A stretch of 63,623 nucleotides of DNA, the filler included, from Dugesia japonica (Eukaryota): NCBI GenBank assembly GCA_001938525.1. It is 6 parts of 6 records of this genome, joined end to end, with 100 filler letters (N's around TTAATTAATTAA, not from the genome) between each part and the next. Parts side by side here need not be neighbours in the genome. Positions count along the whole stretch, not along the records: positions 1 to 13,549 come from MQRL01472448.1; 5 more parts are not named here. One strand, given 5' to 3'. This document shows, piece by piece, positions 3,727 through 60,184 of this stretch. A model generated the notes under the pieces. That model was not told the DNA's origin. It was given only the letters and a program-made list of their open reading frames with translations, and made no database searches. Every line of letters starts with the position of its first letter. Position 1 is the first letter of the stretch. A program made the translations under genes and the position numbers.

Positions 3727-4039
3727 TGTTGGGTTACTAGGCATTTGATGTTTTAGTTTTGTTTTCCTGATCTTTATTATTAATCTCTCGATCACAATTG
3801 TTTCTTCTCTTAAATATCATTTCTGCCTGAGGGATGATACCTAGTAACTACAAAGATTTGCGTTGCTTTCTCTATTCCCATATTCCCGGATTCAGCGGGA
3901 CTATGCTGTATCCCGTCTTATGTGTTCAATTTCTAATCTATCCGGCTCTCGTTATTCCATGTCATTCTTTATTACATGCTGGTGATATACGCAATAACAA
4001 CTCTTGGTAAATAAAAATTTATTTCTCAAACAACGATGA

Positions 4040-4380
4040 TTACTCATCCAGGTTGATGACTTCCTTGACCATTTCCTTTGTAATCTCTTTCTTCGGCTTT
4101 GAAACTTGTGCCAATGTTCTTACGGTGGATATCAACACCCCCTCTCTGTCAGCATAGGCCCTGATGATGTCGGCCATCCCCGACAGTACTGTGATAAGGC
4201 TAGATCTCTTTCTTTCAGCTTGACATTTGTATCCCGTAGCGACGCATTCTTTTGTTGTAGCTCCGCTATTTGGTTCTGTATTTTTTTGTAAAGAAGCCCA
4301 TTTTTCTGAATGCCCACAATTGGTGTGTCGGTCAGCTTCCTTGTATTTGACACTGCAATTATTGAGAAATTAATATTCAT
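4040..4380 (-). pseudogene. Small coiled-coil ORF (module of row 1)
   Basis: caag|ATG at 4380; heptads IQNQIAELQQKNASLRDTNVKL; continues in a shifted frame to ~4040; AATAAA at ~4020. Confidence 0.5.
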
Positions 4381-4615
4381 CTTGTATCTATATTTGTAAT
4401 AATAGTGTAATTCATAATTGAAAGCATGTTATGAAGTTTTTAAACTTAACAATATTCAAATCAACGACAAAATCTGTGTCGCATAACAACCGGGTTTAAT
4501 CGTCATCATAATTTAATTACTTTAATTCCTCGTAAAATTCTATGTTCACATTTTGTTCGACAGTAAGAAAGCAATTAAAAATAAAATATATTATAATGTA
4601 AACAGATAAGTTGGA

Positions 4616-5150
4616 TCACACAAATGTCTCAACAAAAATTTCTTCTTCATACAACGGAATCAATATTTGTTGTAATGTGGTCTCTACTTTAATAAACAAT
4701 CGATCCAACATCTTCGAATATTCTTCCGCCTCGATCTGTGTAGAACGTAACTCCTGTATTAGCTTTTGTTGCTGCTGAGCCAGTTCTGTAGAGCGAACGA
4801 GCAACGCCACTATTTCCTTTTTGCGAGCCTCTTATTCTCCTGCCAATTCTATGATTCGGTTTCGATAGGTTCGTTCCTGGGTATCTACACTTTTTTGTAG
4901 ATAATCAAGCATTGTTAACTTATGCCGAAGAGTCTCTTCCTGTCGTGAAACTTGCTCTTTCAGTTGGGTTATTTGAGCATCTTTCTGCTTGAAGCGATAT
5001 TGCACAATCCACCACGGATCCGCTTCTGTGCCCTTGGATCCAAGAAAAATCCCACAAATTCGACATACTGTTACATGGATTTGCCTGGAAGGAGCATCCT
5101 TCGGCTCCCAACGAATCTCTGGCCGTGGTATTTGTTATGTGTCGAGACAT
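4616..5150 (-). pseudogene. Frameshifted coiled-coil ORF of ~175 codons (module of row 1)
   Basis: ctag|ATG at 5150; after one frameshift reads ..WWIVQYRFKQKDAQITQLKEQVSRQEETLRHKL..*..ELAQQQQKLIQELRSTQIEAEEY, joining track ORF 4616-4810. Confidence 0.55.
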
Positions 5151-5749
5151 CTAGATAGACATAAATATATATGGATGAATAATATTAGGATATATGACAC
5201 TATAATCTATACATTGAGTTAATTTAATAATAATATAATACTTTTCGTAGGTGGATAATTTATCAGGTTATTAAGTGAACAAGCTATGGATAACTCGTCA
5301 TGATAGAAGGAGTTAGATCTTCTTCATACAGCATGGGCATTTTATAATTTATCATAAGCTGCATCTTTTCATAACTCTTCATTCGTTGGAGGTTTCATAT
5401 AAATCTTTATTCATTAGATGTTATCCCTTCAAAATCTATTTCCTCCTTCATAACGAATGGTCCTCCTGCTAGCTGCGTTATCATATTAAACTTATAAATA
5501 AAGAAGTATCAAATCATATTATAGGAATTATTAAGTTAGGTAAGAAAAATATTTATAATATTAACAGTATTAATATAAATGCATGACTAAAACAATAAGG
5601 TTCAATTATAATTGGACATCGACTTAAAATTTTCACTACAAGTACAATCCTAATAGCACAGTACAATAAGCAATTAACTAAATAACATAGAATTCAACCA
5701 CCACATATCTAATTTATTCGCATTTACTTCTTTACTTCCTCGTCTTTAA

Positions 5750-6329: not shown

Positions 6330-7750
6330 ATTTATATACCTTATCATAGCATTTTTTTAAAGGTTTCCACAGACTCACAATGTGACTTTTTTTCATTAGC
6401 CATTCTAAACATTCTTTCTCTTATTTCTTTTGTAGGTGATTTGAACTCTTCTCTATTTATCAAACTGTTTTTGATACGAATTTCTTTAGATTTTTGGGAA
6501 ATGCTTTTTAATTTTGACCAGTCTGTGGGATTTCGAACAACAAACCAAACTGAAGACCATTCATAACTAATAAAACTATTTAGACTTTTAAGATCTTCAT
6601 TATCTACATTAAAAAGTATTTCAGCCATTAAACAATAAATAGCTTTTGAATTCCATCTGGATGAACATACATTAAACGGAATTTGTGGTATTTTAATAAG
6701 TAGTTTATCACCACTTTCTCGTAATGTCCGGATTCCTTTACAAAGTTCAAACAAATACCGATAGTCTTCTCTCCTATTTTCTAAATTAGGAAGGTCAACG
6801 CAGAATATTGGGGACAACTTTTAAACTTCTAAATATTTTTTCTGCAATTCAAACCATTTGGATTTGATTTCATTTACAAAATGGTATGTTTTATTCGGTC
6901 CAGCTGATTTTTCAGTTTCTAGAAAATAATTTATATTCTTCTTTCTCACTAAATCTGTGAGATCTATTTAAAACCATTTCGCTCTAGACTATATGGAGAT
7001 ATTAATAATTTTGATTACACCATTTCGTTTGATTATGATTGTTGTTCGCAATCAAAAAAAATAATTTCAATGTCATATCTCTGAAAAATATTCAAGAGCA
7101 ATGTTGCAATTGTACCTGCTTTTTTATTTGAAATTTCAGTCAATTCTATTAAAGACAAACACATATCATCTCTCTCTTAGAACAATAAAAATCTGATTGT
7201 GTTTAATATCTAAATACATAAATTTAACAAATCCATTGAGTGGAATAATCTTGGACAAATTAAAAGTATCCTTTCTAGTCACCACTGATAAACCACTTAT
7301 TGAAGAAGCTGATGAAAGTTCTTTTAAATATGCGGATTTTGTTTTGTAGAAGTTCATGATTGCTATCGTTTGAAAAATACCAAGATTTCCAATTTCTCTC
7401 AATTGCTCAGAAAATATAATATTTCTGTTTTTGATGCCATTGTCTATATCCATAAAATCTCTATCATAATATTCATCGTCATAAATTTCTTCAAAGCCAA
7501 TTTTCTTTTACTACTATTGCTGTTTTCAAAGAGTTTCATATCATTACTTTTTTTAATGTAAACGTCTCTTTTTTAACCGATGTATTTGCAAATCGAATAT
7601 TGTATACTAGTAATATCCACCTAATTTATACTTTTGGTTATAATAATATTGCTCATCCTCTTCAGATTTCCAAGTGTGTTTTGGTGGAAGACAATCAAAC
7701 CAAGCACCATTATTAGACAGTTACCAATCTTTTAAATTGGTGTATATGTG
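6330..7750 (-). pseudogene. Degenerate DNA transposase, probably hAT (hATm-like)
   Basis: CSSRWNSKAIYCL in ORF 6344-6817 resembles the RW..KAIY signature of hAT-type transposases; broken upstream frames 7166-7453 and ~7600-7710. Confidence 0.45.
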
Positions 7751-8811: not shown

Positions 8812-9228
8812 CAGGTATCGGTAACCTTTTCTAGTCGTCGGGTATATTTATGATATAAAAAATTTCCGTGGGTACAAAAAAACACGAACACACACACCTT
8901 GAAAATACCGCACAAGAATACGTCGTATGATCAGCTTATTTTTCATTCTCACTATTTTTGTATACGAAATATTGATTGTGGGAAAAGAAAATATTTAGTT
9001 TAGTACATGCACAAACAGACGTTTCTAGTAGACAAAAACTTTGATTGAGTTCTTAGTCAAAATTTAATTAAAGGTTATTAACCATTTTATATAAACTGTA
9101 CAATTATTCAAATAGAGAAATTAAAATCACATTGTCCAATTTTTATTACATCTATGAATACTTACTGGTTTTTATATATTTGAATGTTGACACCAAGATG
9201 CCCAAGAGAACCACGTTGTCGATCCCTT
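8812..9228. mobile_element. hAT MITE
   Basis: Imperfect TIRs CAGGTATCGGTAAC / GTTGTCGATCCCTT; 8-bp flanks CCTTATAG / CTTTAGAG. Confidence 0.6.
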
Positions 9229-9695
9229 CTTTAGAGAATAATTATTAAAATAACTTAAAAATTTCAGGCTAATCACTAAACAAATGATAATAAACTAAAA
9301 TGTGCTATAATTAAACAGAAGTCTAAGCATTATAACATGTACAAGCATTGAAATAGTTCCTAAATCTAATTGAAATCTGCATTACTCAAAACACAAGAAT
9401 CACCATAAAATAAAATATCTGGATTGTTTAGGTATTTCGGTTGACAATATTGTTGGGGTTCCACCTGAGTTTGTGGTATAAAAACATTGCTGGGGAAAAA
9501 CAGCCTTCAGGGGACCCGTTCAAGAATTTAATCTAAAGTCCCTATTTAGATTTTTGGTATAGAGTGGTTGGCTTCCAACACTTATTTGAGGTGCACACAC
9601 GTATACATTTGTTTCGGGTTTAACATGTTTCCTTATTTGAAATTAACCAAAATCAAATAAAAAATTATTAAAACTAAGATTTATTTGGTGACATT

Positions 9696-10057
9696 CTACA
9701 TCAAATCTAGAGCCCCCGGGTCTAACCACTGGGTAGGCTCATCTACCAAATAGTTTAAGGCGGCTTCGTCGTCTTTGTCGTTCCAACGGATACACGCTTC
9801 ATTCCCTAGATGCCTGGATAAATCTGTTATGCAACGATGTAGGAAGTCAATTTTGTGCTGTAATATCTGTTTAGTCTGTTCCGCCAACTCACTCGGCTTT
9901 TTCACTATAAAATCGAGATTCTTAATTAAGCGGTTGCGTTGTGCCAAATGGCGAAATAAAGCTCGTTCTGTTTGTCTTTTAAGGTGACGCTCTACGAGAA
10001 GCTTTTGGATTAGCCGGTGGCATCTACGCAGACTGGTGGGTAATTGTATACGTGGCA
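9696..10057 (-). CDS. Module D: ATG-less basic/helical ORF of ~120 aa after a splice acceptor
   Basis: ttattatctgtttag|TG CCA CGT in frame; stop at 9696; AATAAA at 9680-9685; the track's hydrophobic N-terminus is the polypyrimidine tract. Confidence 0.6.
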
Positions 10058-10264
10058 CTAAACAGATAATAATCATTAAGATAAGAGATAAACTAAGCAT
10101 TTCAAAATTCAAATGAGATCAATAAAGATATCAATCCAGACAAAATAAATTAGTACAAATTCAAGAAGTCTTTTATTTACAAATGAACAGTAATTGCAGA
10201 ATTCAGGGCCGCGATATTTGAGTGCTCTTTTCTATCATAAGCGGCTCAAGCGGCATTCTCTTTC

Positions 10265-10560
10265 TTATTCCAGAATGACATTCAGCAGTTTATTCTCACG
10301 GTCATGGAGGGATCGAAAACTTTTTGCAATGGACTCGATTTGTGACTCCCAGAGCCTTTCTTGGGCATGGGAGGCCTCTGCTTCTTGGCGGAATGCTATG
10401 CATTTCTTTTTGTATCTCTTTACCTCACCTTCTGAAGTGGTCGTGTTGACCTCCCATCGACGTTTTGCAAGGCGATACAAGTACCATGTCATCTCAGTGT
10501 CTTCACTTGATTGACATATTTTTTTAGTGGGTGCCGAGGAGCGGTTTTAAGATAAATGCA
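10265..10560 (-). pseudogene. Module C: coiled-coil ORF of ~98 aa after a splice acceptor, one early in-frame stop
   Basis: ctaat..catcctcatctttgcag|TG CAT TTA TCT TAA AAC.. in frame with track ORF 10265-10492; TGTAAATAAA at 10172-10181. Confidence 0.55.
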
Positions 10561-10720
10561 CTGCAAAGATGAGGATGTCAATTAGTAGTTATAGAAAATT
10601 AAAAAAATCAAACAACAAATTTGATATTTAAAAGATTATTATTCCTTATAATAGCTTATGGAATTCATCAGTAACGTAAAGATACAGTGTGAATACTTTA
10701 GTAATAAAAAAAACAAATAT

Positions 10721-11145
10721 TTATAATGAAGTCTCATTGGCGGGATTCGCGTTCTCGGAATTAATGCTCTCGCCGGAATTACGGATGTTCCACAAATTAT
10801 TCTGAACGAAGGCATTCAGCTCAGAAAAAGGAGGTAAGTGTTCAGTAGACAAACTCACGATGGAAGGGCCTACCTGCTCAATCTGGACGGTTCGTGGTTC
10901 TCCATTAATATCTAACTGAGTTGTGGTAACGGCGTGGTAGACAGCACGTGTGTGATCGGGGTCCGTCCAGTTATAATAGGCCGCACGCTCGTTTGCGTCC
11001 CACTGTCTTTCATCCTCTATTTTATCGGCCGGTAAGTTTGAACGTTCTACGAGAACCCCAGCATCACGGTTATGCGGGTACTTGTAACGTTTAAAAATCG
11101 TACGCGCCGTCCTTCTATCAAGCACGATTTCCCCTTTATATTCCA
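10721..11145 (-). CDS. Module B: ATG-less 141-aa ORF after a splice acceptor, unknown product
   Basis: actaacatattttatag|TG GAA TAT in frame (branch-point-like ACTAAC); open 141 codons, relatively GC-rich. Confidence 0.65.
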
Positions 11146-11286
11146 CTATAAAATATGTTAGTTTTTTTTATCGTGTATAATTAGTGGTAAAATAATAAGA
11201 AAATGTAAGTGTAACTACTTGATTGAAATATTATTTATTTTAGTAAAAACAAAGAAGAAAATTTGTAATGAACGGCAGTCATAGTT

Positions 11287-11487
11287 TCAAGATGGCGATT
11301 GAACTTCTTCGTCCATATCCACATTAAAGTTCAATGGGAACATCTCGACGAAACACTGCAAGTCCGTTTCATCAGGATGTTCCACCAGATGAGGAAACAA
11401 GTGGTGGCCAATAAGTTGTTTGAGCCGAGCCGTCTTACGCTGCTTCCGAATCAAGCGGAGTGTATTTCTTAACTCAGCTGGAATACT
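11287..11487 (-). CDS. Module A: 66-aa ORF with no N-terminal ATG, basic N-terminal half and acidic C-terminal half (absent from ORF track)
   Basis: ttttcattacttttag|AGT ATT CCA = SIPAELRNTLRLIRKQRKTARLKQLIGHHLFPHLVEHPDETDLQCFVEMFPLNFNVDMDEEVQSPS*; AATAAA at 11234-11239. Confidence 0.55.
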   Translation of the reverse strand, partial: SIPAELRNTLRLIRKQRKTARLKQLIGHHLFPHLVEHPDETDLQCFVEMFPLNFNVDMDEEVQSPS

Positions 11488-12272
11488 CTAAAAGTAATGA
11501 AAATTTTAAAAGATTCTAGTTCATCATACTAATGACCTTCTCAAATAAAAACTAAAATAATTTAGAACTAACGAGCGCCGCTAACCTTCAGTTTTTGGTT
11601 AATGTAAACTCCTATAACAGATAATCCCCAAAGTCTGTGAGGGTAATAATGTTTATTATTATCTCAGCTAATTATTAATACACTCACAATCAATATTTTA
11701 ATAGTACTATTAAATCTTCTAGACATAGGCTAACAATCATAAAGATTCTAGTCGAGCTGGGACTAACAGTTTTTATTGCAACTATAGTACTTTTAACGAG
11801 AATAATTATTACGACATTAATAATAATATCAATGATAATAATACACTAATAGTGTGGTCTCTTAATAATAATAATGAGGTTAATATTAGTGATACTAATT
11901 TAGATGCCAATAATAATGTTAAGGATAGTAATAGCAATCATGTTAACAAAATTATTAATTTGGCCAATAATAATGGTGTGACCACCTTTAGGAATTGTCT
12001 TAATACAGAATATTGGCGATAGTTTTACTTACAATAAGTTCCAAAATAAGCTGACGGATAATAGACATCAAATTATTAATAAGAATGATCATTATAACAA
12101 CAGAATGATGGTAATAATATTTTGAATAAAATATTGATGTTTAAATTAGTAATTATCAATACATGACTAGCGACAAAACATTCGATCTTAAATCAAATAA
12201 CAGGAATAATTTGTAATATTGATTATTTACTATGATAGTGGTGGTTGCAATCGCATCTAATAGAAAAAGGAA

Positions 12273-12517
12273 CTACCGGTGCAACAAGTCATCTAGATCG
12301 GCATTACTGGTAAACTTAAATAGGCCACTAATCATTGTTATGAGAGTGAAAAACACAAGTATGTATGTAATAATATGAGTAACACTCCTGAGGCAATGGG
12401 GCAGGCCATGACAGGGTTTATAGCCAAATTCACTAAAGTCCATACACAAATCTCGTAGTGACTCAGTGCCAGAATCAATATCACACACCAATTCGCATAA
12501 TTTCTTGTGGATTCCAT
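12273..12517 (-). CDS. Small Cys-containing hydrophobic (TM-like) ORF; frame ambiguous
   Basis: 72-aa frame with IITYILVFFTLITMISGLF overlaps a 59-aa ATG frame (MESTRNYANWCVILILAL..) that is also hydrophobic. Confidence 0.3.
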
Positions 12518-12689
12518 TTTACGCCAAAAGGCTAGTCTAAGTGATCATTGCATCAAAACAGAGAAATTGAATCGGATAATAATTATACTCGTGATATTTC
12601 TCAACACAGAAATAACACTGTCAATAACTACGATTTAGACTTTTCTGACATGGTGATCGTTATAGTCGTTGTTGGAATTTCAACAATTG

Positions 12690-12846
12690 GATTTATTTTA
12701 TAATTACAATTATTGTGAGAGTAAATGTTGAACTTAACCATTGATCGCATTTGAGATTTCATTAAAATAAGAAAAAGCTTCGATCAAAATAAAATTTATT
12801 TGTTAAAAGGTTCAAATTTTCGATAATAGTCTTCTTCAGATATTGG
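12690..12846 (-). repeat. Copy of short hammerhead-bearing (Penelope pLTR-like) repeat, degenerate core
   Basis: Matches 57995-58157; minus strand CTGAAGA-agactattatc-GAAA. Confidence 0.65.
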
Positions 12847-13549
12847 CTTCTTGAGATATTCAATACAATAGATCTTTGTCACTCAATTCTTTAAATTTTA
12901 TCGAAATTTTATTGGTTTATTTTTTTTATACTTTTAATTTTAACGATTTTAATTTTTATTTTTAAATCAACTCAAAAAATTTCAAAATTTTTTTTTCATT
13001 AATACAGAAAAGTCTTTTAGATATATTATACTAAGAATTTTTTAATTTTTTTAAATTTTTGTTATTTTTTTGAAAATTTTTAAAAATTTTATTGTGTTTT
13101 TTTAATATATAATTTATGTTATTTTAAATAAATGTTATTTTTTAAAAATTTCTTTTTTAAAAATCATTCAAAAAGGAACTAATTTTACATAAAATTATAA
13201 AATTAATTTTTTTTGAATTAAAATTTTTTTTAAAAGTTAAATTCGTATTAGGACAACTAATTAATATATATAATTAATATTATTTCGTTTTTTAAATTTT
13301 TTATATAAAAAATATATCTATTTTAAACATATTATTTATAGATATTGATATAAACTTTTTTTTTAAATCAAAAATATTTTTTCAAATATTTTAATTGTTG
13401 AACACTACATTAATCTGAGGTTTATATTCTTTAATTAAAATTTGTTCATGTTTCTTTCTGTGAAGTGTAGAAATTTAGCATGTTCCTAATGTTTTCCATG
13501 TAATATGATGATTTTCTGGTAAAACATTATGTTTGTTTTGAAAGTGTTT

Positions 13550-13649
13550 NNNNNNNNNNNNNNNNNNNNNNNNNNNNNNNNNNNNNNNNNNNNTTAATTA
13601 ATTAANNNNNNNNNNNNNNNNNNNNNNNNNNNNNNNNNNNNNNNNNNNN
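13550..13649. other. Artificial scaffold spacer
   Basis: N44-TTAATTAATTAA-N44, exactly 100 nt; identical spacers at 27350-27449, 36190-36289, 45228-45327, 55257-55356. Confidence 0.97.
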
Positions 13650-16600: not shown

Positions 16601-17510
16601 AGAGAGATTGGGACAAACATTTGAATTTGTGTTTANNNNNNNNNNNNNNNNNNNNNNNNNNNNNNNNNNNNNNNNNNNNNNNNNNNNNNNATGTACGGTC
16701 GAGAATGTAATATGCCAATAGATTTGGAGCATCAGCCACCGATATCGCAGTACATGGGCGAAGATGATTATGTTACTGGTATGAAAGAGAGAATGCGAGA
16801 AATATAGAAATTGGCAGCGTTAAATGCGAAATTTAATCAAGAAAGTTATAANNNNNNNNNNNNNNNNNNNNNNNNNNNNNNNNNNNNNNNNNNNNNNNNN
16901 NGAGAACATCCCGCAACAAAAGCTTCACCTTTTAAACTTATGTACGGTCGAGAATGTAATATGCCAATAGATTTGGAGCATCAGCCACCGATATCGCAGT
17001 ACATGGGCGAAGATGATTATGTTACTGGTATGAAAGAGAGAATGCGAGAAATATAGAAATTGGCAGCGTTAAATGCGAAATTTAATCAAGAAAGTTATAA
17101 GGAATTGTATGATCGAGAAACAAAGCCCCGTACGTTTAAAAAGGGTGATATGATACTGATTAATACATCAACAATTGAAATTGGAACCACAGATAAATTA
17201 AAACGACCAAACAAAGGACCGTATTTAGTGTTAAAAACAACTGCAAAAAATCTAAAAGTAAAGGAAGTTGGAAAGCCACTCAAGAAGCCAAGTATTGTTC
17301 ATGTATCGAAATGTAAACTAGCAACAACCCAAGACGACAATGATAAAGAAAGCGATGAGGAGACTGTTGAAAGAGTGAGACGAGTCAAGGTCAAGCCAAA
17401 AACGGAGGACAGTGACGAGGAGGTCAAACAAAACTTTAAAAAGACAAAAGGAGTTAGTTTCAAACCGAGATTAATTGATGAGGAGAATCGATACCCAATC
17501 AGGTCCAGAC
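13650..17510 (+). pseudogene. gypsy pol: protease end, RT, RNase H, integrase
   Basis: VLVKKKDGTMRFCIDYRQLN; DLQSGYWQI; YLGHLIS; LATDASGYAMGAVLSQ; GGHMSAKKT..YYWP; TDQGKNF..YHPQTDG; GPY motif; C-terminal RYPIRSR. Confidence 0.95.
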
Positions 17511-20500
17511 AGCAAATAATGATGATAATGGGGAAAACAATCAAAGCGGTAGACGTCAATGTGAGTACATGCAATCAGAGGAATCTAGTCTTGCGATGTA
17601 AAATATGTCACTGTACAAGTTCTATTACAGTGCCATTAAATAAAGTGCTTATGAGCAAAATATGTTTTCACTGTTTACAATCGATTTATGATAACTTAAC
17701 GTTGATGGAGAAAAGTGTCAAACGAGAATCATTACAAGAGGATAGGAAGGAACCCAATCGTTCCACATGTGAATAATGTAATGAAATAGCGTTCAAACAG
17801 AAAGTAGACTCGGACTTATATCAGCAATGGTGTAATAGTTACCTGTGTAAGGCTAAAGGAATTATTGACAATGAATTGGAGGGCTTACATGTACATATGA
17901 GAGGATCAACAGCAGCCAATTCTATTAGACGAGATATAGAATTAACTCATGACGAAATTTTACAAAAATTCAAATTAAATGATCAATTAAAAATTTATGA
18001 AAATAGACGAGATATGCTTAATCAATATTATTCTTCAGTGACGGACGACTGGAAGAAAGGAAATCGAAAATGCGACAATCCAAGATGTGGACGATATAAC
18101 ATGAAAGGACTAATTCCCCAAATTCAGACAACGATAACGGGGGAAATGGTTACGATTCACTAGAGGAAGTGGTAAAAAGCGGGATGATGGACTATTGTGA
18201 ATTAAGCGGACGACCACCGCATGCAGAGTAGGGGGATACACCAAAAATCACTAAATTAAAGGATGCTGTATGGGAGGAGTTTTTGACACAACAAAAGAAG
18301 TATGAAGCAGAGAATAGTCAGAGAGTCAAAGCTGAGGAAGACGATATATTTAACGCAGAGACGATAGCTATGATGAGAGCGTATTTTATAGATAGTGTTG
18401 ATTCCAACAGCCGTACTAGAAAAGATTAAGGCGTGCGGTGAAGGATGTTATCAAAAATGGATCCAGGAACATAAAAAGGAAGGAAAACCGAGATTACCGG
18501 AACATAAAGACAAAAAGACGCCCGGAGAGCGGCCAACGTCAAAAGAGGAGCGAAAAAGAAAGGAAAAAAATAAGGAAATAGAAACTGCAATATTATTAAC
18601 AGTAGAAAGAGTATTGCGTCGTGGAATGGACATACCTAAAGAGAAAAAGTTGGAAATGCAAGCGTATTATCAAAGGAGAAAACGCAAATGGTGTGCAGAA
18701 CGTCCAGGAGAAAAGTTTCCCACGATACGGGATGGGTATAGGATGGAGAGATGGCCGAGAGATCAAGAACTCCAAAAGTATCATGAACGAGAGTATAAGA
18801 GAATGCGGTGTGCTTTACAAAAAGCTAGAGGAATATTTAAAAATTGAGGAATCGTACAACGGAAAATCTCTTATCGAACAAGATTGCGAAGAGCGATTCA
18901 TAAGAAGTGAAGATATGGTAATTGAGTACCAGAGAATAGCAGATGTGTATCCACATCCATTGTTGGTAGAAGAGAGTGAAGCGATGAAAAAATAATACCT
19001 ACAAGCAATGCAGCGTAAAGCAAAACAAGAAAAAGAACAGGATTCGAGCAAGCGCCAAAGTCAAGTGGAGATGTGGAAATAAGAATGGGGCAAACAATTG
19101 CAAAAATGTTATGGAATCACGGAACCAGAAACGAAAACTAAAACGCTAAAGGAAGCAGAAACATTGAACTTTTGAGGGATTATTGAGGACGACACAAAAG
19201 ATAATGACAAAGTTGAGGACGAGATAGTAGTAATTGGAATGATGGACCTTAAGGGCAATGTCCTGTTTGAGATGCCTTTTACACCTGAGTTAATGAAGGA
19301 GATTAGAGCAATTCAAGAAAAACAAGAAGAAAGAAAGGTTGGAACAAGACAATATGAGTGTGGAGTGAAAAAGAATCAAATAATAGAACAAGAAATTAAC
19401 TTAGTGATGGAACAGGCAACGATTAAAGAACCGAGTCGAGGAACTCCGTTACCAGAACCACCACAAATGGAAATGACACGTCAGAAGGAAATTATGTATA
19501 CCCGATGAAGAAATCCGAATCACAGGACCCTGTTTACGAAAATGAGTCAGGAGATCTAAAGGTGGAAACAAAGAGGACATACTTCTTACCTACAATCAGA
19601 ATTCGGGATTATTCGAAGCCAACAGAGAGTGTAGTTTTTACTACTACCACTATATTCATGTGTTCTATTCTACGCGTGACCGGTATGAGCCAGTCTGGCT
19701 CGGATTCAGAGGCAAATGTCAGAAAAAACGGGCGGGGTATATCTCGCAAGTCTGGAGAATCGAACTACGGGGAGTGATGGGAATTCAATGGAACCGGTTC
19801 CCATTAGGTATATGGAGACAGCACGCCACCTTACGAAAAGAAGAGTGGCCTATGATGGATATGAAAATGCGTATAGTAGACAAAGAGATGCAGAAGTTAC
19901 GTTCCAAGGGTCACGTAGAAGAAAATGGTTTTTTCGGATTAAGCAATATCAGTCTTTAACATATTGGATGCAAGACGGGATGTTACAAGAATATAGATGG
20001 GAACGTAACCAAAACGAAATGATAATGAAGCTTAATCAAGAAAATGTGGAGTGGTTAGAATTAGAATATATATTATTAGACGAGATGCCACCGAGCAACA
20101 AGGCAATAACCGTCAAACCGACGACAAAAGGGAGAACAAAAGCGAAAACCTACTTAAAGACGGCAATGGTCAAGTCAACAACAGAGAAGTGGAGGACGAG
20201 GGTGTATTCAAAAATGACAACGACAGCGATAACAACTATCATGAAGAGAGGTACGACAGAAACCAGTGTACAAAGTAAAAGGAGGAACCATATGATGACG
20301 GGGTATGCGAAAACGACAACTGAAAGTGAATCAACGAGGAAGCCATCGAATGTATTAAATAAACANNNNNNNNNNNNNNNNNNNNNNNNNNNNNNNNNNN
20401 NNNNNNNNNNNNNNNNNNNNNNNNNNNNNNNNNNNNNNNNNNNNNNNNNNNNNNNNNNNNNNNNNNNNNNNNNNNNNNNNNNNNNNNNNNNNNNNNNNNN

Positions 20501-20714
20501 NNNNNNNNNNNGTGGTGGAGTAGCGGGCGTCATTACGATTATCATGATGACGATTATAACAATATTAATTTGTAAAGCGAAACGAGGGCAGTATTCGAGA
20601 CTGCGTTTGGAACCGGAATTAAGAGAATTGACAGCAAAATATTTGCATCCGCCAAGAGAGTTGGTGCGATCGGGAGTTCCAGAGGGAGGAACTGGGTTGC
20701 TATGGAGTTATTGA
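17511..20714 (+). pseudogene. Decayed ~1000-codon extension of pol: Cys-rich part, charged helical region, putative ectodomain, Thr-rich stalk, TM helix and short tail
   Basis: In frame with integrase; CxxC pairs (CKIC, CFHC, CE*C); 17060 and 17876 ORFs share a frame across one stop; TM GGVAGVITIIMMTIITILIC followed by KAKR. Confidence 0.6.
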
Positions 20715-20930
20715 GGAGAATAGTGAGAGTGAAGTTGTAAATAAATTTCCTGAAATTTAACAGTAAGGTACACAATTTAGTTTTGAGTAGCTCNAAATGT
20801 AAAGTAGAGCATAGCTGATTAAATTGAAATTAAAATGTGAATTAGTTGAATAAATTTGAATTTTATATGGATCACTATAAAATTTATCGTAGTATTTAGT
20901 TAGTAAAGAATGGAACAGAAACAGATAACA

Positions 20931-21425
20931 ATGAACGGACAACTAGCAGTAAATGTGGATCTAGACGACTTCGACAGAGCAATTACGGAGGAACCATGAC
21001 AAACGTATACCCAGATGCTTAATCAACTTTTAAATCCTTATTTTACAATGGAAATTTTGTGGGACGAACACTGCCGAAGCGTAATGAGAAATTCAGATAT
21101 GTTAAACGAGCAACTTCAACAGACACGACAATTAAACGCAATCCTTGTGGAGAATGTAAATTTTCATGTGTTGCAGATACATCGACTGAATAAAATAGTA
21201 GAGAATCAGAGACGACAGATTACCGAGAATCAGAATTTTTACCTACAAACTTTGAGTGGAACTAACAAAATAGTAGAGGATCTGAGACACCAAGTGGATG
21301 AGTTACAAGCCTATAATGCAGAGCTTATTCTATCCGGAATTAATCGACTACCGAGCGTATCCGCCATCCTGAACACTATCGAGACGAGCGAGAGGATGTG
21401 GTATCGAGAAGAGAGTAATGTATGA
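20931..21425 (+). CDS. Accessory coiled-coil ORF (one internal stop upstream of 21015)
   Basis: ATG at 20931 in frame with track ORF 21015-21425; heptads IVEDLRHQVDELQAYNAEL; AATAAA at 21518. Confidence 0.6.
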
Positions 21426-21588
21426 TAAAAGGTGCTAAAACGTAGAGTATTGTAAAGTATGTGTGTTAAATAGTAACTGTATTACTATTCAAAAAAAATC
21501 AAAAACAGTAAAAGTATAATAAAAGTAGAGTGGCAATTATATTTATTTAATCAGTGCGTAATCAGAATAATTCCAATTTGTATATAGA

Positions 21589-21809
21589 ATGTCTGAAGAT
21601 TTTCAAAGGCTGTGGAGTTGTGGGGTGGAGACGATCACGATAGAGAAGTCAAGTTTGGAACAGAAATCAATCGCAGAATTACAATTTCGGTATTAAATTT
21701 ACCTTGTGAGCATGTAGCAGTTTGTCAAAAATGTCACCAGAGAAACGAGTTTAAGCGATGTGAAGTGTGTAAATGTCCAATAGAGGAGTGGCATGTGGTG
21801 TATTTATGA
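21589..21809 (+). pseudogene. IAP/MDM2-type C-terminal RING finger (C3HC4_3-like), first CxxC missing
   Basis: LPCEHVAVCQKC..RCEVCKCPIEEWHVVYL*; tatag|aATG upstream but out of frame; TGTAAATAAA at 21828-21837. Confidence 0.75.
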
Positions 21810-21996
21810 GTGGAATACCCGGTAAATTGTAAATAAAAATAAAATCAGGAAACAGTACAGTAAAAGTAACAAAGGAAGCAATATTAAAACAATTGGTACA
21901 TATCAGTCTCAATTAAAAGTTGAATTATCAGTAACTCCCAATATCTTAATATGTAGATATTCCATATTATGATTTACGTATATTTCAATTAAGAGA

Positions 21997-22984
21997 ATGG
22001 CATCCAGATATCAGAAAAGTATGAGTCGACAACGAGTGCGATCAAAAGATATTTTGAGAAAAGTAATTCCATCAACAATGACAACTCCCGTCTATATTAC
22101 TAACCGAGAACACAGGAAAATAAAGCGAGTGAACAGCTACGCGGTGGCGAGTCGCCGAAATTACAGTCAAATATACTTGAAATAGAGGATCAGGTTGATT
22201 CATGTTGCAGATCAAGTTGAATCAATCCAAATCCAATCCCCAAGGTCACGATGAACCATTTGATGAAATAGAACAATCCCGAGCTCAGTGGAAACAGGCA
22301 TGTTTAGCCAAAGAAGAGAAAATACATCAACTACAACTGGAATTGTCATCCATGCAAAAAAGACATCTAGATCAGGTCAAAGAATTAGAAACGGAGATCA
22401 AGTGGCAGAGCAAGAAAATAAAAATGCTCGAGAAAACCATGGAAAATAATAACGAAATCAGAATTGTGAATCAACGAACTCCCCAAGTGAAGACGAATAA
22501 ATTGCAAGAAGAAATCGATCAATTAATAAAAGAAAGTCGAAACCAACAATCGCAAAGAGAACAAGATATGATCGAAATTCAAAACCTAGAAAATGCCGTA
22601 AAGCATCTGCGCGATGAGAATGTTCTCTTAAAGGAAACTCCTATTCGAGTAGTAATCCCTCCACGTCAAATTAAAACTACAAAGCGAGAACAGACCTTTT
22701 ATACCTATAAAATCAATGGGCGATCAGTAGCCCCACAAATCAGCTTATTAGACCAAAGAGCGAATCATAAAAGAAAAGATCAAGTGTCTCAATTTTCCCG
22801 TCAATTTCCCAATTCTCAGTCCAGTCAATCCAGCCCATCCTATCCTACGACTTGGACAAATGAACAATCGCAATGGCCATATTCAGCGTCCGAAGAGGAT
22901 CTGTTCAAAAGGTTAAAAATCTGGTTAAAAGGGAATAACTGGACTCAGAGAACTCGGAAAAAGTTCGGAAAAGAAAATTCATAA
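21997..22984 (+). pseudogene. Accessory long coiled-coil ORF with basic N-terminus and S/Q/P-rich tail (frameshift near 22185)
   Basis: aagag|aATG at 21997; heptads EEKIHQLQLELSSMQKRH..LQEEIDQLIKE..IQNLENAVKHLRDENVLL; AATAAA at 23058. Confidence 0.6.
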
Positions 22985-23196
22985 GCAGAACTAGGTCATA
23001 AATAATGACGGAGATTACATTATTGATTAACTTATTATGGTAAAAAGAAATGTTCTCAATAAAGGTTTTAAATTATTAAAAAATCGCCGAAAATTATGTT
23101 ACAACTTAATTACAAATAATTATAATCTGACTTTTTTCTTGTTAAAATGAATCAAAAATCTACATTATTTTTCGTTTTCATAATAATAATTAGTAA

Positions 23197-23620
23197 AAGA
23201 TTGGAAAGTGGTATATTGAAAAGTTAAGACGCAATTGTATTCGTCGTTCCAGATTCAATGAAGGCGTTCAACCATTAACTACGTTCAAGATCTCAATACC
23301 CACAGAAGTGAAATTTAATTCTTATGTCACTGCGGATAACAATCTCCTAGTTGCAGATATTCCATCTACTCATGACATTCTAAATCAACTACTAGCACCA
23401 AATTTAAACGATGTAAATGTTGATGATGACAACTTTATTGATGTTCTACTCGATCTGACTATTCACGACCGCATGTGAATGGTGGGCGAATCTACGACGT
23501 CTTTTGGAAACATTGAATGAAGTCCTCACAATTACCACGAAATCTAGAACTACGGAGATCACAGAGTCTGATTGCGATGAAGCCAAGGACAATGAGTCTG
23601 AGATGGAAGATCTAAATTAG
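23197..23620 (+). pseudogene. Fourth accessory ORF, acidic, decayed (absent from ORF track)
   Basis: Stop-free frame KIGKWYIEKLRRNCIRRSRFNEGVQP..DVNVDDDNFIDVLLDL to 23478; acidic tail in a shifted frame ends TAG at 23620. Confidence 0.45.
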
Positions 23621-24969
23621 TGATCCAAAGTTTACTGGTCATCTCTCTGCGTTCTCTTCTTTTTCTTCCGTAGTCGTTATGATCCACAGCTTTTAGCTGA
23701 CTAAAACAAGACAGGTTTAAACTTGGGGAGAATTTTCTAGCATGAAAGATGACTCCGTTTATCTCGGAGTATGCTTTTTATTCGATGGCCAAAGAATTCT
23801 CACTTAATAATGTTAAATAAACGAAAATCAAGAAAATTTATTTAAGTCTCAAATGTTTTGACATTTAAATTTGACAAAAATTCCAAATCGAGTTATTCGA
23901 TATTTGGCGTGTGAATGGTTCATTTCTTGGAGTGATTAATTATGATAATAAGACTATTGTAAAAAGATAGAAAATCTTAACTAGAAAGAAAAAAGACAGA
24001 AATCTACTGAGATGTATTTCGATATTTCTTTATTCCACAATAGAAGTTAATAGAATATTTTGAAATGAAAAACAAAAAGAAATATTGTTATGAAAATTAA
24101 AAAATAATTAATTAAATACATAATTGTGACACACAATATAGAAACTAAGCTAGATAATATTCATTATTCCATCGAAAACCTGTGGATTCATCAAATCTAA
24201 TATACAATCAACTATTCGTAATTCCAAACCGCGGCTTTCCGAGACATTACTATTCGATTTCAAATCTACAAACATTGTATAAATAGATCAACAACTACAA
24301 AACTACATTGAAAATTATCGACTGTCCTTTGTAACACGATTTGCATTGATCCGATCACTTTAGAACATACAGCCTGTAGAAGAATATATACAGAACTATT
24401 AATTATCAATAAAAGAACTTTCTCTTTGATTTAAATCAATAAATACAAAACATTCTAATTTTTGAAGATGAATTATAGTTAGAAATTTATGTTACAAATC
24501 AATCAAGCATATCATTCAATTAAATCTGAAGAAATAACTTTACTTTCACATAAAAATAATAGTTCTAAAAGAAATTTACTGTAAATTCAACAGAAAAGTA
24601 TTTAATTTTTGTTTTTACCGAATTTTCGACAATAGCTTTCACTATACAATAAGTTTTGAGAGATGCAGAATTGATTTCAACAAAGGAGCGATTGTGTTGA
24701 TAATCAATAAGCTTGTCAAACACGCATGGTATTAAGTTAATTCTATTAAAATGAATATTTTTATTCATCAATTCAATTATTAGATATTTTGCAAAAGCGT
24801 TTCATTTTCTCTTGGAAAAATTGAACAGATGTTGCTTATTGATTACACAAAAACTTCTTCAAAAAAGATAGTTATATATCATTCAAAAAATGTACATAAT
24901 TTTAAAAATATTGCTCACTAGGATTTTAAATTTTTTTTAATTAAATCTTTATAAATCTATACGATAAAT

Positions 24970-27926: not shown

Positions 27927-29631
27927 CATATTTGAAGAACAACTAAGTGATTAGAATATAAGTGATTAAAAATAAATATAACGTTAATTCGTATTATTAA
28001 AACAACAATATTTCGAATTTCCAAAACTCTCCCCTCCTTTAAAACGTTTTTCATCTTTTTAACCATTCTTTTCTTCTGGTTTTCAAACCATTTGGAAACT
28101 TGATTTCTACTTGATGTGCTGATACAAACCTCACTATTTGGTATTACTTCATATAGCAAACCGTTTTTCTTTTGTTTGTGTGGTTCTACTCGGACTAATA
28201 CCCACTTTTCAATTTTCTAGGCATTCTTCTCCAAATTCTGTCGCACTATCTCTTTTCTGCCTGTTCTTCTGTTTAAGAGCGTTTCCTCTTAGGTATGCAG
28301 ATTTATCTTTCTATCAAATACGATTTTGAAAGGAGAGAATTTTGCTGACTCTTGTATTGTAGCATTAATACTAAATACTACTCTCAGTAAAGTGTCTCCC
28401 AATCTTTTTCATTACATTTCCTTTTTATTCATATCTTAATCATGTCCCTTCACTGTTCGGATCGTTTCTTCTTTTTTTCTGTCTGAGCCGGTTGAATCAT
28501 TGTAATTATATCGGTTGAATTCCATTGATACGTTTTACTCTGACTTTTTCTCATTTTGAGTCTATGTGTTTCATGCTATATTGTGAACATAAACTCTCCT
28601 TTAAAAAGATCTAAAATTATGGCCAGACTTGCCATAAATTAAAAATCTGTCTTCTAATGAGCATTGATTTTGTTTATACCCACATTCTCAACAGCAGTAA
28701 CATTTACCCACTTGGAGTTTATCTTCACGAGATTCTAGAAATTCACTATGTCTGTTAAATAACATCTTGCAAAATATTTCATCAATACTGCCGGTTTTGG
28801 CCTCATCACCTGAGTTTTATCTTCCATCATCACTGGTTGGGTGCTCCTCTCATATACTCTTTTTAATGGCAAAACATTAACACGTATTTTATGTTTATCC
28901 TCTTCAACTCTATTTATGTATAGTTTCACTACATTTGTATAACTCATCTTTTTTGTATCATACAGATATCTTTAATTTCAGTGATTCATTGATAATTTCC
29001 TTGTTCTCGTGTTGTCAATGTTTCTTTCAACTTTGTATTTTTCACCTTCTTAGAGAGTACGTCATTAATTATTTCATCTTTACTTAGTTCTGAATTCATG
29101 ATATCATCTAACCGATTTCTTACTCTGATTTTGAATGTTGCGAATCTTCCTTCATTCTCATGTTTTGCCGTTGCTAATTCTAAAATCATATCTGAAAACG
29201 ATTTTATTTATCATATATGTGACTGTGAATCGTCTTTTGGCTTCCTCTGTTATGATATCAATTTTTTAAAAATCTTTTAAAAAAATTCCTGCTTTGTCTA
29301 ACAATAGCAAATCAAAGATATCCAAAAAATTAAAATCGTTAACGATAGTCCCACCTACGTTGAAGCTTCTTCTGCAGCTTTTTCATCATATTTTCTGACG
29401 TTAAAATTTTTTAATTCTTGCGTTTTTTTATAAAGCATCTAAAAACAAATTTCCGTTGATGCTGTTATTTTGTCAGCGCATTCACAGTTCTGGTGTGGTT
29501 GCCATTTACAATATTCTTGTCATCATATTTGATCATATTTGAAGAACAACTAAGTGATTAGAAAATTTATTAAAAATAATTTATAACGTTAATTCGTATT
29601 ATTCAAACAACATTATTTCGAATTCCCATAC
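27927..29631 (-). mobile_element. Internally deleted gypsy element with ~100-bp LTR-like direct repeats (same family as 566-3726)
   Basis: Direct repeats 27927-28026 and 29533-29631; PPT AAAGGAGGGGAGAG at 28040-28027; gag from ATG ~29514 with decayed zinc knuckles ~28620-28710; RNaseH-IN linker and IN end; RT deleted. Confidence 0.88.
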
Positions 29632-45227: not shown

Positions 45228-45677
45228 NNNNNNNNNNNNNNNNNNNNNNNNNNNNNNNNNNNNNNNNNNNNTTAATTAATTAANNNNNNNNNNNNNNNNN
45301 NNNNNNNNNNNNNNNNNNNNNNNNNNNTTCCGTTGAAGTTAAACTCAGCTTTATAGTTGTAGATATCGTTCCTGAAATATGCGTTCAGATTTAGTTAAGA
45401 ACAGGATTGCAGACAGCTCAAAACAGACACATATCGTATCGAATGCTAAATGTATCAAATGCAAAAGCACTGGTGGTTGAGGATACACTTCAGACACCAC
45501 TGGGAGAGTTTACGACGCTCCCGGTGCATACCAGCTAATCATGATGGTGCCGAGGGAGCCTCGTTTGTCTCCGTCCCAACAATTTAAAACTTTGCTTCCC
45601 CCTAAAATTAATTCTGCGGTCGCCCATAGCTTTGTACGAATAATTTTAAATTGAAAAATTAATTATGTAAAATATAC

Positions 45678-46102
45678 TTTTTTCTTATATTATCGGTTAT
45701 ATCCGTCTCATCAGGAATCCATCCATACCTATCGCCAATAAGACCCAAAAAGAAATTCATATCATTACATTCATGTCTGCCTTTCTCGATTTCATCAAAA
45801 CAAATCATAAGTGTTTGTTCTCCAGTCGAATCGGCTGGAATACCCCATCGTAAGTCACATTCAACTAAATGTAATCCGTGATTTGCGCACCATTCACGTA
45901 ATCTTGGAAAGACTTTTGTTACTAGAATATTTCTTTCATTATGAAAATCTCGAAAAGTTGATGAAATAAAAATTCTAACAGTCTTTTGTTTATAATTAAT
46001 ATTCTCTTGTGAATTTTCACTGAGTCTAGTTTCTTTAGCTTTCTTGTATTCAAAAGAAAGAGAATTCATTATCGACCCATTAAGATTTAGAGATGACAAC
46101 AT
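45678..46102 (-). CDS. Host exon encoding a DUF4062 domain (TEP1/NWD/TPR-NACHT-type protein N-terminus)
   Basis: KTVRIFISSTFRDFHNERNIL..FPRLREWC..ECDLRWGI..FFLGLIGDRYGWIP; intact frame; donor AA|gtatat at 45677. Confidence 0.88.
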
Positions 46103-46995
46103 TGATTGATTCTTTAATTTAAAACTAATTTAAAATAAGAAATGGTTAAAATGTCAAATTTTATTCAGATTTTCGACAAAATGTACTCTGATATAACAGC
46201 ATGTTAACAATGGAATTTGTTCCGTCATTAAGTACCAAATTGATATCTTTGTAACACATTGGAGTGCTTATAGATTATAGTTGGTTATAAAAGTAATTAA
46301 TGTTGGAATTTTTCTTATCTTGGTCTTAGTTAATTTAATCACATAAAAATTTGATTTAATATGAACTATTAGCAATATCCAAAAATTATGCATAACAGTA
46401 AATATTGGGTAAATAAGAGAAAATTAAACCACATTAATTCCAACGCTTCATCATATTTTCTCTATTCTGACACTACTTCCAGATCAAATACTTAAAAAGT
46501 TTATTAAAGATTTTCTAAAATTAAAATTTTTTATTTTAAAATAAACCAACTTTAAAAATATTATAAGAACGACATGCTAATTTTATAAAATCATGTGATG
46601 AGGCAGACACTCCAAAACTGACAATCAAGGAGAAATTGATGAGTAGGTCAACAAAAGGAAAATCAGATGAATAACCGGGATTAGATGTATAAAAAAAGAG
46701 TAATCTAAGGAGTATCTACGTACAAATGGAAGTCAACTGAGAACAACTATTAATAGACGGGAGTGAAGAAAGTAAGAATAGAGGAAAGATACAGATATAC
46801 AGATGAAAAAGGGCAAGCTAAGAACGGGAACAAAAACTGAGAGAATATAACAAAGGATAAAAACGACAGAATGAGCATATAAAGAAACAGCAAGTAAGGA
46901 ATATACACAATAATTCATTGAATAAAACTAAGAACGAAAATGCTGAACTAATTTAATTATTAGTAACAGAAGAAATAAATATGAATTATTTACGA

Positions 46996-51849: not shown

Positions 51850-52025
51850 TAAAATTCCTGACGAAGACAAGGTCAAAATATCGATTTGTTATCCAATATA
51901 AATAATTAAAACCTAAATTTTGATCTAAGCTTTTATATTAAATGAATTCTATAAAACGATCAATGGTTAAGTCCAACAATTATTCTCGCAATGATTGCAA
52001 TTGTAAAATTAATTTTATAGTTTAT
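51850..52025 (+). repeat. Copy of hammerhead-bearing short repeat (core G12 mutated)
   Basis: aattc-CTGACGA-a-gac-aag-gtc-AAAA-ta-TC-gatttg plus the same downstream body as 57995-58120. Confidence 0.8.
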
Positions 52026-57723: not shown

Positions 57724-57993
57724 TTAAAGAATATTAAAAAAAAATTTTTACAAAGTTTAAATGATTATATAATTTCAATTGTGCAATCTCAATAAAAAAA
57801 ATCAAAAAAATAATTTTAAGAGCGATGTTGAATCCGTCAACTGAACATTAATTTTAGGACTTAATGCCCTTATCAACAAAGCTTCACACATCACTCTCTC
57901 CCAATAACTATTAAATCCGCTGCACAAGATTTTAAAATCAGAACACCCTATTGATTTTATACATTTTCTCCGATGCTCAACAATATTACTATT

Positions 57994-58265
57994 GTTTTAC
58001 AATTGCAATTATTGTAAGAATAATTGTTGGACATAACCATTGATCGTTTTACAGAGTTCATTTAAAATAAAAGCTTCGATCAAAATTGTTTTTTTGCTTT
58101 TTTTTATTGATATTTGATAACAATTCGATATTTCGATCTTGTCTTCGTCAGAAATTGAATTTTTTTCAAGTCAATTCCTGACAAAGACAAGGTCAAAATA
58201 TCGAATTTTTATCAAATATCAATAAAAAAACAAAAAAAAATTTTGATTGAAGCTTTTTTTAAATG
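57994..58265. mobile_element. Short hammerhead-bearing element with inverted arms, inserted in the PLE endonuclease
   Basis: Flanked by AATATTAC(T)ATT duplication (57982 and 58266); ~100-bp arms inverted about ~58164. Confidence 0.8.
58121..58157 (-). ncRNA. Minimal type I hammerhead ribozyme (second family)
   Basis: CAAUUU-CUGACGA-a-GAC-aag-AUC-GAAA-u-AUC-GAAUUG; mirrored, core-mutated copy on + strand 58172-58208. Confidence 0.75.
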
Positions 58266-60184
58266 AATATTACATTACCACTATATCGACTATGCTCTTG
58301 AATTCTGGTGCAGATATGACGGGAAGTATCTCTAATGTATGTGGCGTTACACCAATTACATTTAAATTGATAGACCAGATCAGAGCACAAGTCTAAAAGG
58401 GTTATAGATGTATTATTGAACATATTTATAACCTTATGAAATTGAGATACAACTTTTATATTTAAAATATTCTTAAGAGCATTTTCAATCGAAAGTTTGA
58501 ATTTTTTAGGCCTTCAGAATAAGGTAAAGATAAAACCATTTTAGGTTCTGTTTCTACAACCTCAGATACATTAACACGAGACAAGTCACTATTAAGTTTA
58601 TTCAAAGTTTCATAAACTAATTTATCCGTAAACAATTTAGAATACCCATCATTATGAAGTAAGTCAGTTAATTTTTTAGACTCTTGTCTGCTTTGATAAA
58701 AGTAGGAAAGAGACCAATAACGATGAATTAGTCCTTTAATCATATTACTTTTATATTTTATGTCACAAAAACTTGCGGGATTTGTAAACAAACCAGTATC
58801 AGTTTTCTTTCTATATATATCTGTTTCAAATGAAGTATTCTTTCTTTTAATAAGCAAATCAAGAAAAGGAATAGTTAAATTGATCTCATCTTCAACTGTA
58901 AAACCTATACTTGGATGCAAGCTATTAATATACTCCAAAAACTTGAGTGATTTTCAAAAACAAGGAAAACGTCATCGACATAACGTTTATAAACTAAAGG
59001 TTTAAAAAAAGAATAATCATTAATCTTAATCTCTAATTTAGACAAGAAAATAGAAGCTAATGTTGAAGCTAATGGGGATCCCATCACCACACCATCAATC
59101 TGTCTATAATATTCATCATTAAAAAGAAATTGAACATTCGATGTTACAAAAGTTAAAAGATCATAATCATCCTGTTTTATCCATGATAAAAGCAGCTCAA
59201 TATAAGGTTGCCAAACTGTTGGATGAGCTTATTAAGCCTTTACATAAATCTGAATTTGAGTGCCAAGAAAGTTTTGAATTTTCTTTTATTTCTCAGTATC
59301 CATTGGCTAGTAATGATTGCTTTATCGTCTCATTTGATGTAACAAGTTTATTTACTAATGTTCCATTAAAAGAAACTATAGATTTATGTTGTGAAATATA
59401 GAGTGATTTTAATCCTAATAAATCTTCTGTAGGTGATATAGCGTTTCATGATCTTTTATCTTTTGCAACATCGAATGTTCAATTTGTTTTTAATGATTTT
59501 AATTGGCGGGAAATTTAAAAAAAATTTTTGGTTTGAAATTTAAATTATTTTTTTTGTCGGTAAATTTGAAAAAAACTTTTCTTTATCTTTTTCGATTAAT
59601 TAATTAATTATTTAATTAGTTTAAATTATAATTAATTATTTTCATGCATTGTTTCAGAAAGTCTTTTTTTCCCTCCATACCATAGCATTACCTCCTCCGC
59701 CATACAACAGTCCAACAGAACGAATCCATTAAGTTCAGATAGCACACAATCGAGTCCGTTCATAATTGAATTTATCGACCAGCTTGCGCAGTTCTGACTA
59801 AGCTAAGCTCGATTTACAGTATGTGCATCTCCGGTAGCAGTGTTTCTATTCGTTTACATTCGAACATAAATTGAACCACGCAACAATTGTTTAAAAACAA
59901 TTATCGACTAGACGTAAAGTGGTAAAGAATTATATCGCAACTGTTACTTATTCAATGCATGTCATATTTATATATTATTTCGCACATATTAGACATCTTT
60001 GTCTCATTTATTTTGACCATATTAATGGAAACTTTTATCATCATAGACGTATTACTATGGAACTTTCAAAACATCATAGACTATATTACCTTGGAACCTT
60101 TAAACATCATAGACCATATTACTATGGAACCTTGAAATAGCACTTACCTAAATTTCAAATTATATTAAACTAACTTAAAAAATT

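Follow-up and report, generated by a model that had tools for sequence, protein, structure and literature searches.

A row of splice-acceptor-led reading frames within a possible solo LTR of a Ty3/gypsy element in Dugesia japonica

Results and discussion

Four minus-strand frames in line

The window analysed here, which is the whole stretch of 63,623 nucleotides (filler included) from Dugesia japonica assembly GCA_001938525.1, has a GC content of 29% and contains broken Ty3/gypsy pol pieces throughout, as revealed by a Pfam scan. Four minus-strand frames of 66-140 codons that belong to no known family (M1-M4, referred to as row 2; Table 1) lie in line in the region 9451-12685, each preceded by a T-rich acceptor-like site. 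GC content is 44-47% in these modules versus 17-31% in the spacers, and the spacers between M1 and M4 are 141, 160, and 207 bases long (21-31% GC). Two minus-strand stop-free runs of at least 110 codons were matched by none of 300 local shuffles, and M1-M4 can be taken as real modules. In the case of M4, in-frame ATGs are also present upstream, within the T-rich spacer.

Table 1. Coordinates of row 2, its proposed ends, and the features compared with it
Feature	Position	Strand	Description
5' part	11488..12685	-	30% GC; AAT-rich stretch; hydrophobic frames of 68 and 81 codons near 12270-12545
M1	11287..11487	-	66 open codons from the first base past the acceptor (phase 0); AATAAA at 11239
M2	10721..11145	-	CTAAC at 11161, T-rich acceptor, AG/TG, then 140 open codons without Met
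M3	10265..10560	-	opens AG/TG; 97 codons, one in-frame stop at 10547-10549; AATAAA at 10177
M4	9696..10057	-	opens AG/TG; 119 open codons, the sole Met being the last; AATAAA at 9685
Tail	9451..9631	-	acceptor-led at 9631, short frame only; likely R/U5, its ATTAAA at 9532 being 81 bases short of the end
Left terminus	9451..9462	-	minus-strand reading ends CCCAACA; likely U5 end of an LTR
Proposed right terminus	12674..12685	-	TGTTGAA on the minus strand; doubtful: half of a hairpin, short repeat adjoining
Short dispersed repeat	12694..12863	.	flanking, outside the element; four aligned copies and one further partial copy (nhmmer)
Row 1	3727..5490	-	gene row of like build; starts with TGTTGGG at a cut in an integrase gene
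Row 3	20910..23735	+	acceptor-led layout as in row 2, downstream of pol and upstream of PPT-like GGGGAGA (23725)

Database searches returned only sub-threshold Pfam rows for the row-2 frames, with no family over the cut-off when cut-offs were applied to three long frames, the four modules, and the six frames of 11487-12757. No relatives were detected for M1 (homologue search and viral contig scan), for M2 (homologue search, metagenome scan, and Atlas), or for M4 (a 116-residue part against 1.84 billion representatives, and a metagenome scan), and M3 was searched against Pfam only. The acceptor-led gene row is real and unassigned, and none of the tested proteins has a detectable relative. M1 holds the pattern H-x7-EHxDETDxxC-x3-MxPL, which is its sole match in the six frames of the window. 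The structural model of M4 contains three predicted helices (pLDDT 57.5), and its fold search gave generic helical matches only and nothing at E<=0.001; the model of M2 (pLDDT 36) is unusable. The N-terminal similarity between M1 and M4 was equalled in 23 of 20,000 shuffles and is the best of 87 pairs, because of which paralogy of the two modules is suggestive only. Upstream of M1, no Pfam match was obtained in the six frames of 11487-12757, and the idea that the 5' part is a membrane gene in decay was rejected, its stop counts being no lower than those of shuffles (235 of 500).

Ends of the candidate element

The initial annotation had described imperfect terminal inverted repeats that enclose the modules, with neither gag nor pol inside and with no target site duplication (TSD), and these observations were all borne out. 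The termini TGTTGGGGTTCC (starting at 9451) and GGAATTTCAACA (ending at 12685) are present and complementary at 9 of 12 positions; Pfam scans gave no gag or pol signal between them; and there is no TSD because the flanks, AATAT and ATTGG, agree at only 2/4, 2/5, and 0/6 bases. The perfect part of the inverted match is 5 bases. At least 3,508 TG...CA pairs with a perfect 5-base core, at least 9/12 complementary positions, and a spacing of 1-8 kb occur in the window. Among the other TGTTG 12-mers, 11 of 165 (the right end being one of these 11) pair with the left end at 9/12 or better. Five CAACA ends lie in range, which gives the left end a probability of about 0.29 of having a partner. By itself, the inverted match is therefore not above chance level. 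A DNA transposon was rejected, as the termini pair perfectly over no more than 5 bases and a TSD is absent.

The integrase-site consensus given for LTRs of animal Metaviridae is TGTTRNR...YNYAACA (PMC3601003), and the ends at 9451 and 12685 both conform to it; 7-mers fitting this consensus have a frequency of 1.6e-3 per base here. The specific heptamer at the left end, TGTTGGG, occurs six times in the window (5e-5 per base), where 3.3 occurrences would be expected, and two of the six copies close gene rows, 245 bases past the last stop in row 2 and 313 bases past it in row 1. On the gene strand, a poly(A)-type hexamer is located 81 bases from the TGTTGGG end in row 2 and 51 bases from it in row 1, and it is because both rows carry such a hexamer 51-81 bases from that end that the minus strand is likely to be the sense strand and 9451 the U5 end.

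Other hallmarks of a retrotransposon were searched for. Neither the element nor the sequence close to it contains the PPT-like motif GGGGAG, no PPT motif was detected at the flanks, and a single weak PBS-like match was found, overlapping the left end. No second copy of the element was observed in the window, in metagenome contigs (M2 and M4 scans), or in viral contigs (M1 scan). Two features of the left flank were also recorded. The segment 9440-9456, TTGACA-ATAT-TGTTGG, is a near palindrome that resembles two element ends meeting across 4 bases. Further out, the region 9140-9235 (minus strand) contains a purine run followed by TATATAAAAA and AATAAA 30 bases apart, and could be a separate short LTR.

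The right end is less convincing. It forms one half of a local hairpin (12670-12685), and the short dispersed repeat begins only about 8 bases from it. The octamer TCAACAAT at the right end, which has 7 occurrences in 121,170 positions, also precedes another copy of the repeat (at 57977-57984) in nearly the same place, and because so rare an octamer precedes a second copy, the right-end CAACA may belong to the flanking repeat, as part of its tail, or to its target. The repeat may also have disturbed the right-end target site of the element. No TSD was found around the copy at 12694-12863, and a search for a hammerhead in it gave no Rfam match. As regards other copies of the repeat, that at 51850-52011 has a 13-base direct repeat on both sides, likely a TSD, and a hammerhead-like core by eye, and two copies are arranged in inverted orientation at 57988-58268.

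Comparison with rows 1 and 3

The TGTTGGG of row 1 lies no more than 2 bases from the point where an integrase gene breaks off sharply: when the junction was compared with an uncut integrase copy, 87 of 100 aligned bases were identical before position 3728 and 48 of 91 past it, where the alignment has 18 gaps, the TG at the junction being common to the cut integrase gene. For row 1, searches recovered neither a far end nor the remainder of the integrase. Since the 7-mer is all that rows 1 and 2 share at the DNA level near the end (z -1.0) and their proteins are not clearly similar, row 1 is considered to be an analogue rather than a copy of row 2. The frames of row 1 are coiled-coil-like and contain stops and frameshifts; one of them opens AG/TG (4352) and another AG/ATG (5150).

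Row 3 is located on the plus strand, and the presence of this row between pol and a PPT-like motif implies that the acceptor-led layout occurs outside LTRs too. It contains a RING finger at 21591-21809 (E 5.5e-6 in the Pfam scan). The larger region past pol (19689-23735, plus strand) consists of a Thr-rich frame and a membrane-like stretch, and then acceptor-led coiled-coil frames together with the RING finger. A GGGGAG also follows an integrase copy, at 28034.

The nearest pol to row 2 on its right (approximately 14.5-16.7 kb) lies on the far side of a linker at 13550. N-flanked linkers are present at 13550, 27350, 36190, 45228, and 55257 of the window and likely represent joins between separate scaffold pieces. 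Linkage of the 9451-12685 element to the pol past 13650 was therefore rejected as an interpretation: with such a linker intervening, that pol offers no evidence of linkage, and this copy has no internal region joined to it.

A solo LTR or another part of a Ty3/gypsy element

Among four explanations of row 2 that bear on the LTR question, the best is that 9451-12685 is a solo LTR of a large Ty3/gypsy element with the minus strand as sense and the genes in U3, a reading to which we give about even chances. The proposal in the initial annotation that the enclosed region might be an LTR has indirect support from the consensus-type ends, the row-1 junction sharing the 7-base end, and the terminal poly(A)-type signal, and is weakened by the absent TSD, the doubtful right end, and the failure to find a second copy or a PBS/PPT-flanked pair in the sequences scanned. 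As an LTR, this region would be atypical: its 3,235 bases hold four frames, whereas the canonical LTRs of Metaviridae are described as non-coding, with a U3 of 200-1200 bases (PMC7879559).

A less probable possibility is that the genes are accessory ones from the internal 3' region of a minus-strand Ty3/gypsy element and have been severed from its pol, in which case only the last stretch (e.g., 9625-9451, 175 bases) would be an LTR and the right end would be a matter of chance. Row 3, past pol and before its PPT-like motif, has this very layout, the right end at 12685 is itself doubtful, and an att-like TGTTAAA at 9625, which would allow such a short LTR of 175 bases, comes after a purine-rich run. 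Long regions with extra ORFs between pol and the 3' LTR are also known from the plant Ty3/gypsy lineage Retand, which carries some 3-6.5 kb of additional coding DNA toward its 3' end and could serve as a model; however, the Retand ORFs, as that source presents them, are antisense to pol, outside the LTR, and mostly TRP28, and no such domain is present here (PMC11963269). In addition, the run before 9625 is A-rich and without the GGGGAG seen at 28034 and 23725, the tail of row 1, as we read it, is without an att-consensus site, and the 5' part matches no row-3 frame, one row-3 piece having been compared off-frame. If this explanation were true, the locus would be more ordinary, yet it would still represent an undescribed accessory region.

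It is also conceivable, although unlikely, that 9451 marks a genuine LTR end with the genes inside that LTR, but that this copy was cut short at the flanking repeat, the other end not being 12685. All left-end evidence applies equally to such a truncated copy, the missing TSD would be due to the truncation at the repeat, and the 8-base match before the second repeat copy is consistent with it. Nevertheless, 12685 conforms to the att consensus, and a chance partner within about 8 bases of the repeat would itself be unlikely. When this version is counted together with the solo LTR, an LTR with genes inside becomes moderately probable.

Finally, it is highly unlikely that the left end is a worn tRNA-Gln PBS on the plus strand, with the genes antisense in a 5' leader and a 5' LTR ending near 9446: with two mismatches, 9453-9464 agrees with the complement of the 3' 12-mer given for tRNA-Gln (PMC13524379), and TTGACA lies 6 bases upstream, but the window has five equal matches (two of them within M1 and M2), one mismatch falls in the CCA-pairing TGG, the listed tRNA ends number well over 100, no gag is present downstream, and the TGTTGGG at row 1 would be left unexplained.

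Candidate splice acceptors and a proposed origin of start codons

In all four modules, the top-scoring T-rich YAG is located at the frame start. An acceptor followed in phase by TG, where an upstream A would complete ATG, was found in three of the four (M2-M4) as compared with 23 of 392 T-rich YAG sites in the background; the acceptor score used for this comparison is self-devised and was fixed after the sites were seen, and the AG/TG pattern was looked for on purpose. On this arrangement, M2-M4 would gain the first letter of their start codons only by splicing to an exon ending in A. For M1, phase 0 is the only open one, and an A-ending leader does not suit this module.

We also examined whether a leader exon is present inside the element. 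TATAAA occurs three times, including at 12422, and, of 13 donor-like sites, four are preceded by an A (12433, 12307, 12230, and 11529). Based on the counts of donors and TATAAA, no candidate leader within the element is above chance; the TATAAA at 12422 and the donors at 12307 and 12230 could form a leader, at a level that is likewise not above chance. AATAAA hexamers, such as those listed behind the modules, are common in spacers of 17-31% GC.

A rival mechanism, which is separate from the LTR question, is that row 2 is an operon resolved by spliced-leader trans-splicing, the terminal AUG of the leader serving as start codon. The spacers of 141, 160, and 207 bases are shorter than the 300 bases used as an operon threshold, an AUG terminates the leaders in those parasitic flatworms that were surveyed, trans-splicing has been reported for S. 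mediterranea, and leader pieces have been found in LTR and LINE loci (PMC12582326). M1 is open for 66 codons in the leader-AUG phase. However, M2, M3, and M4 close after 32, 23, and 15 codons in that phase, so that this mechanism suits only one module of the four (M1), and we consider it quite unlikely.

Similarities to and differences from known systems

A coding frame inside an LTR has a precedent in MMTV, in which the sag/naf ORF lies within U3 and is thus duplicated with the LTR, and in which a U3-internal promoter, P2, can drive this ORF. The MMTV case as described involves one ORF region of a vertebrate retrovirus, whereas row 2 comprises four unrelated-looking frames with their own acceptors in an invertebrate element, without any sequence match (PMC9412291). 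Building of a start codon by splicing within Ty3/gypsy is known for env in the springer subclade of Drosophila errantiviruses. There, an AU is spliced to a single env outside the LTR and was mapped experimentally, whereas a single A is proposed for three small genes here (bioRxiv 10.1101/2023.08.03.551782). The giant planarian Ty3/gypsy elements Burro/GYPSM1 resemble the proposed element in being large, in having accessory ORFs, and in likely belonging to the same host group. Their giant gag-env-pol polyprotein includes domains such as BIR, MATH, and BCL2, and the extra domains reside in this huge polyprotein and an upstream accessory ORF rather than in genes inside the LTR (PMC6431247). Pfam scans detected no Burro-type domains in the row-2 frames. 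We found no published title on multi-gene arrays inside invertebrate LTRs, which does not establish absence from print, and the original Burro paper may describe LTR-borne ORFs.

How such an element might work

If 9451-12685 is a solo LTR as preferred above, its U5 would end at 9451 and its U3 would start, with less certainty, at 12685. A short leader exon with a terminal A might, in the full element, be spliced to one acceptor at a time, thereby building a start codon; as one leader would be joined to one acceptor at a time, each spliced RNA would make one small protein. Each such RNA would presumably end at the poly(A) signal behind the stop of its module, and the unspliced genomic RNA would read through to the last signal at 9532. 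Coupling of the acceptor and the poly(A) site in terminal exons would permit such read-through. M1 would need a different first exon. It is possible that the proteins, of which M4 is predicted to be helical, are accessory regulators of the element.

The annotation had further suggested that the genes would be duplicated with the LTR and left behind as solo-LTR gene cassettes. Against this idea, M2-M4 need an upstream exon, no leader is above chance, and M3 contains a stop. Judged from these sequence features, the solo copy as a cassette left behind appears weaker still than the LTR reading, and this copy would likely be silent unless U3 has its own promoter and leader.

Taken as a whole, the existence of an invertebrate Ty3/gypsy lineage with an accessory-gene array inside its LTR, in which the last A of one leader exon completes each start codon, is a tentative proposal that we regard as doubtful. 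If it were true, splice choice would act as the on-switch for each protein, and working multi-gene cassettes would be spread across the genome by those solo LTRs that have an inner promoter. A multi-gene LTR would represent an accessory set like that of complex retroviruses, with its dose doubled per insertion, and this set would stay in place once the two LTRs had recombined. Such an LTR could further account for the failure of LTR finders at the ends of some planarian elements. In the table of an errantivirus survey that used a 3-kb flank for its LTR search, six of six rows for S. mediterranea are without LTR and PBS, and two of three other flatworm rows are without LTR (PMC13524379); LTRs may be missing from the S. 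mediterranea rows because long LTRs would outrun such a flank.

Other features of the window

No tRNA was found in the whole window, and an Rfam search gave a single sub-threshold miRNA row. An exact 161-base duplicate (16691-16851 and 16940-17100) is present on both sides of an N gap and is likely an assembly artefact. Between rows 1 and 2, the minus strand of 6344-7507 carries broken frames of 158 and 113 codons without a Pfam match, which, judging by resemblance, may be a transposase relic. In addition, a DUF4062 frame (E 3.2e-10) with a weak NPHP3 match was detected on the minus strand at 45659-46129.
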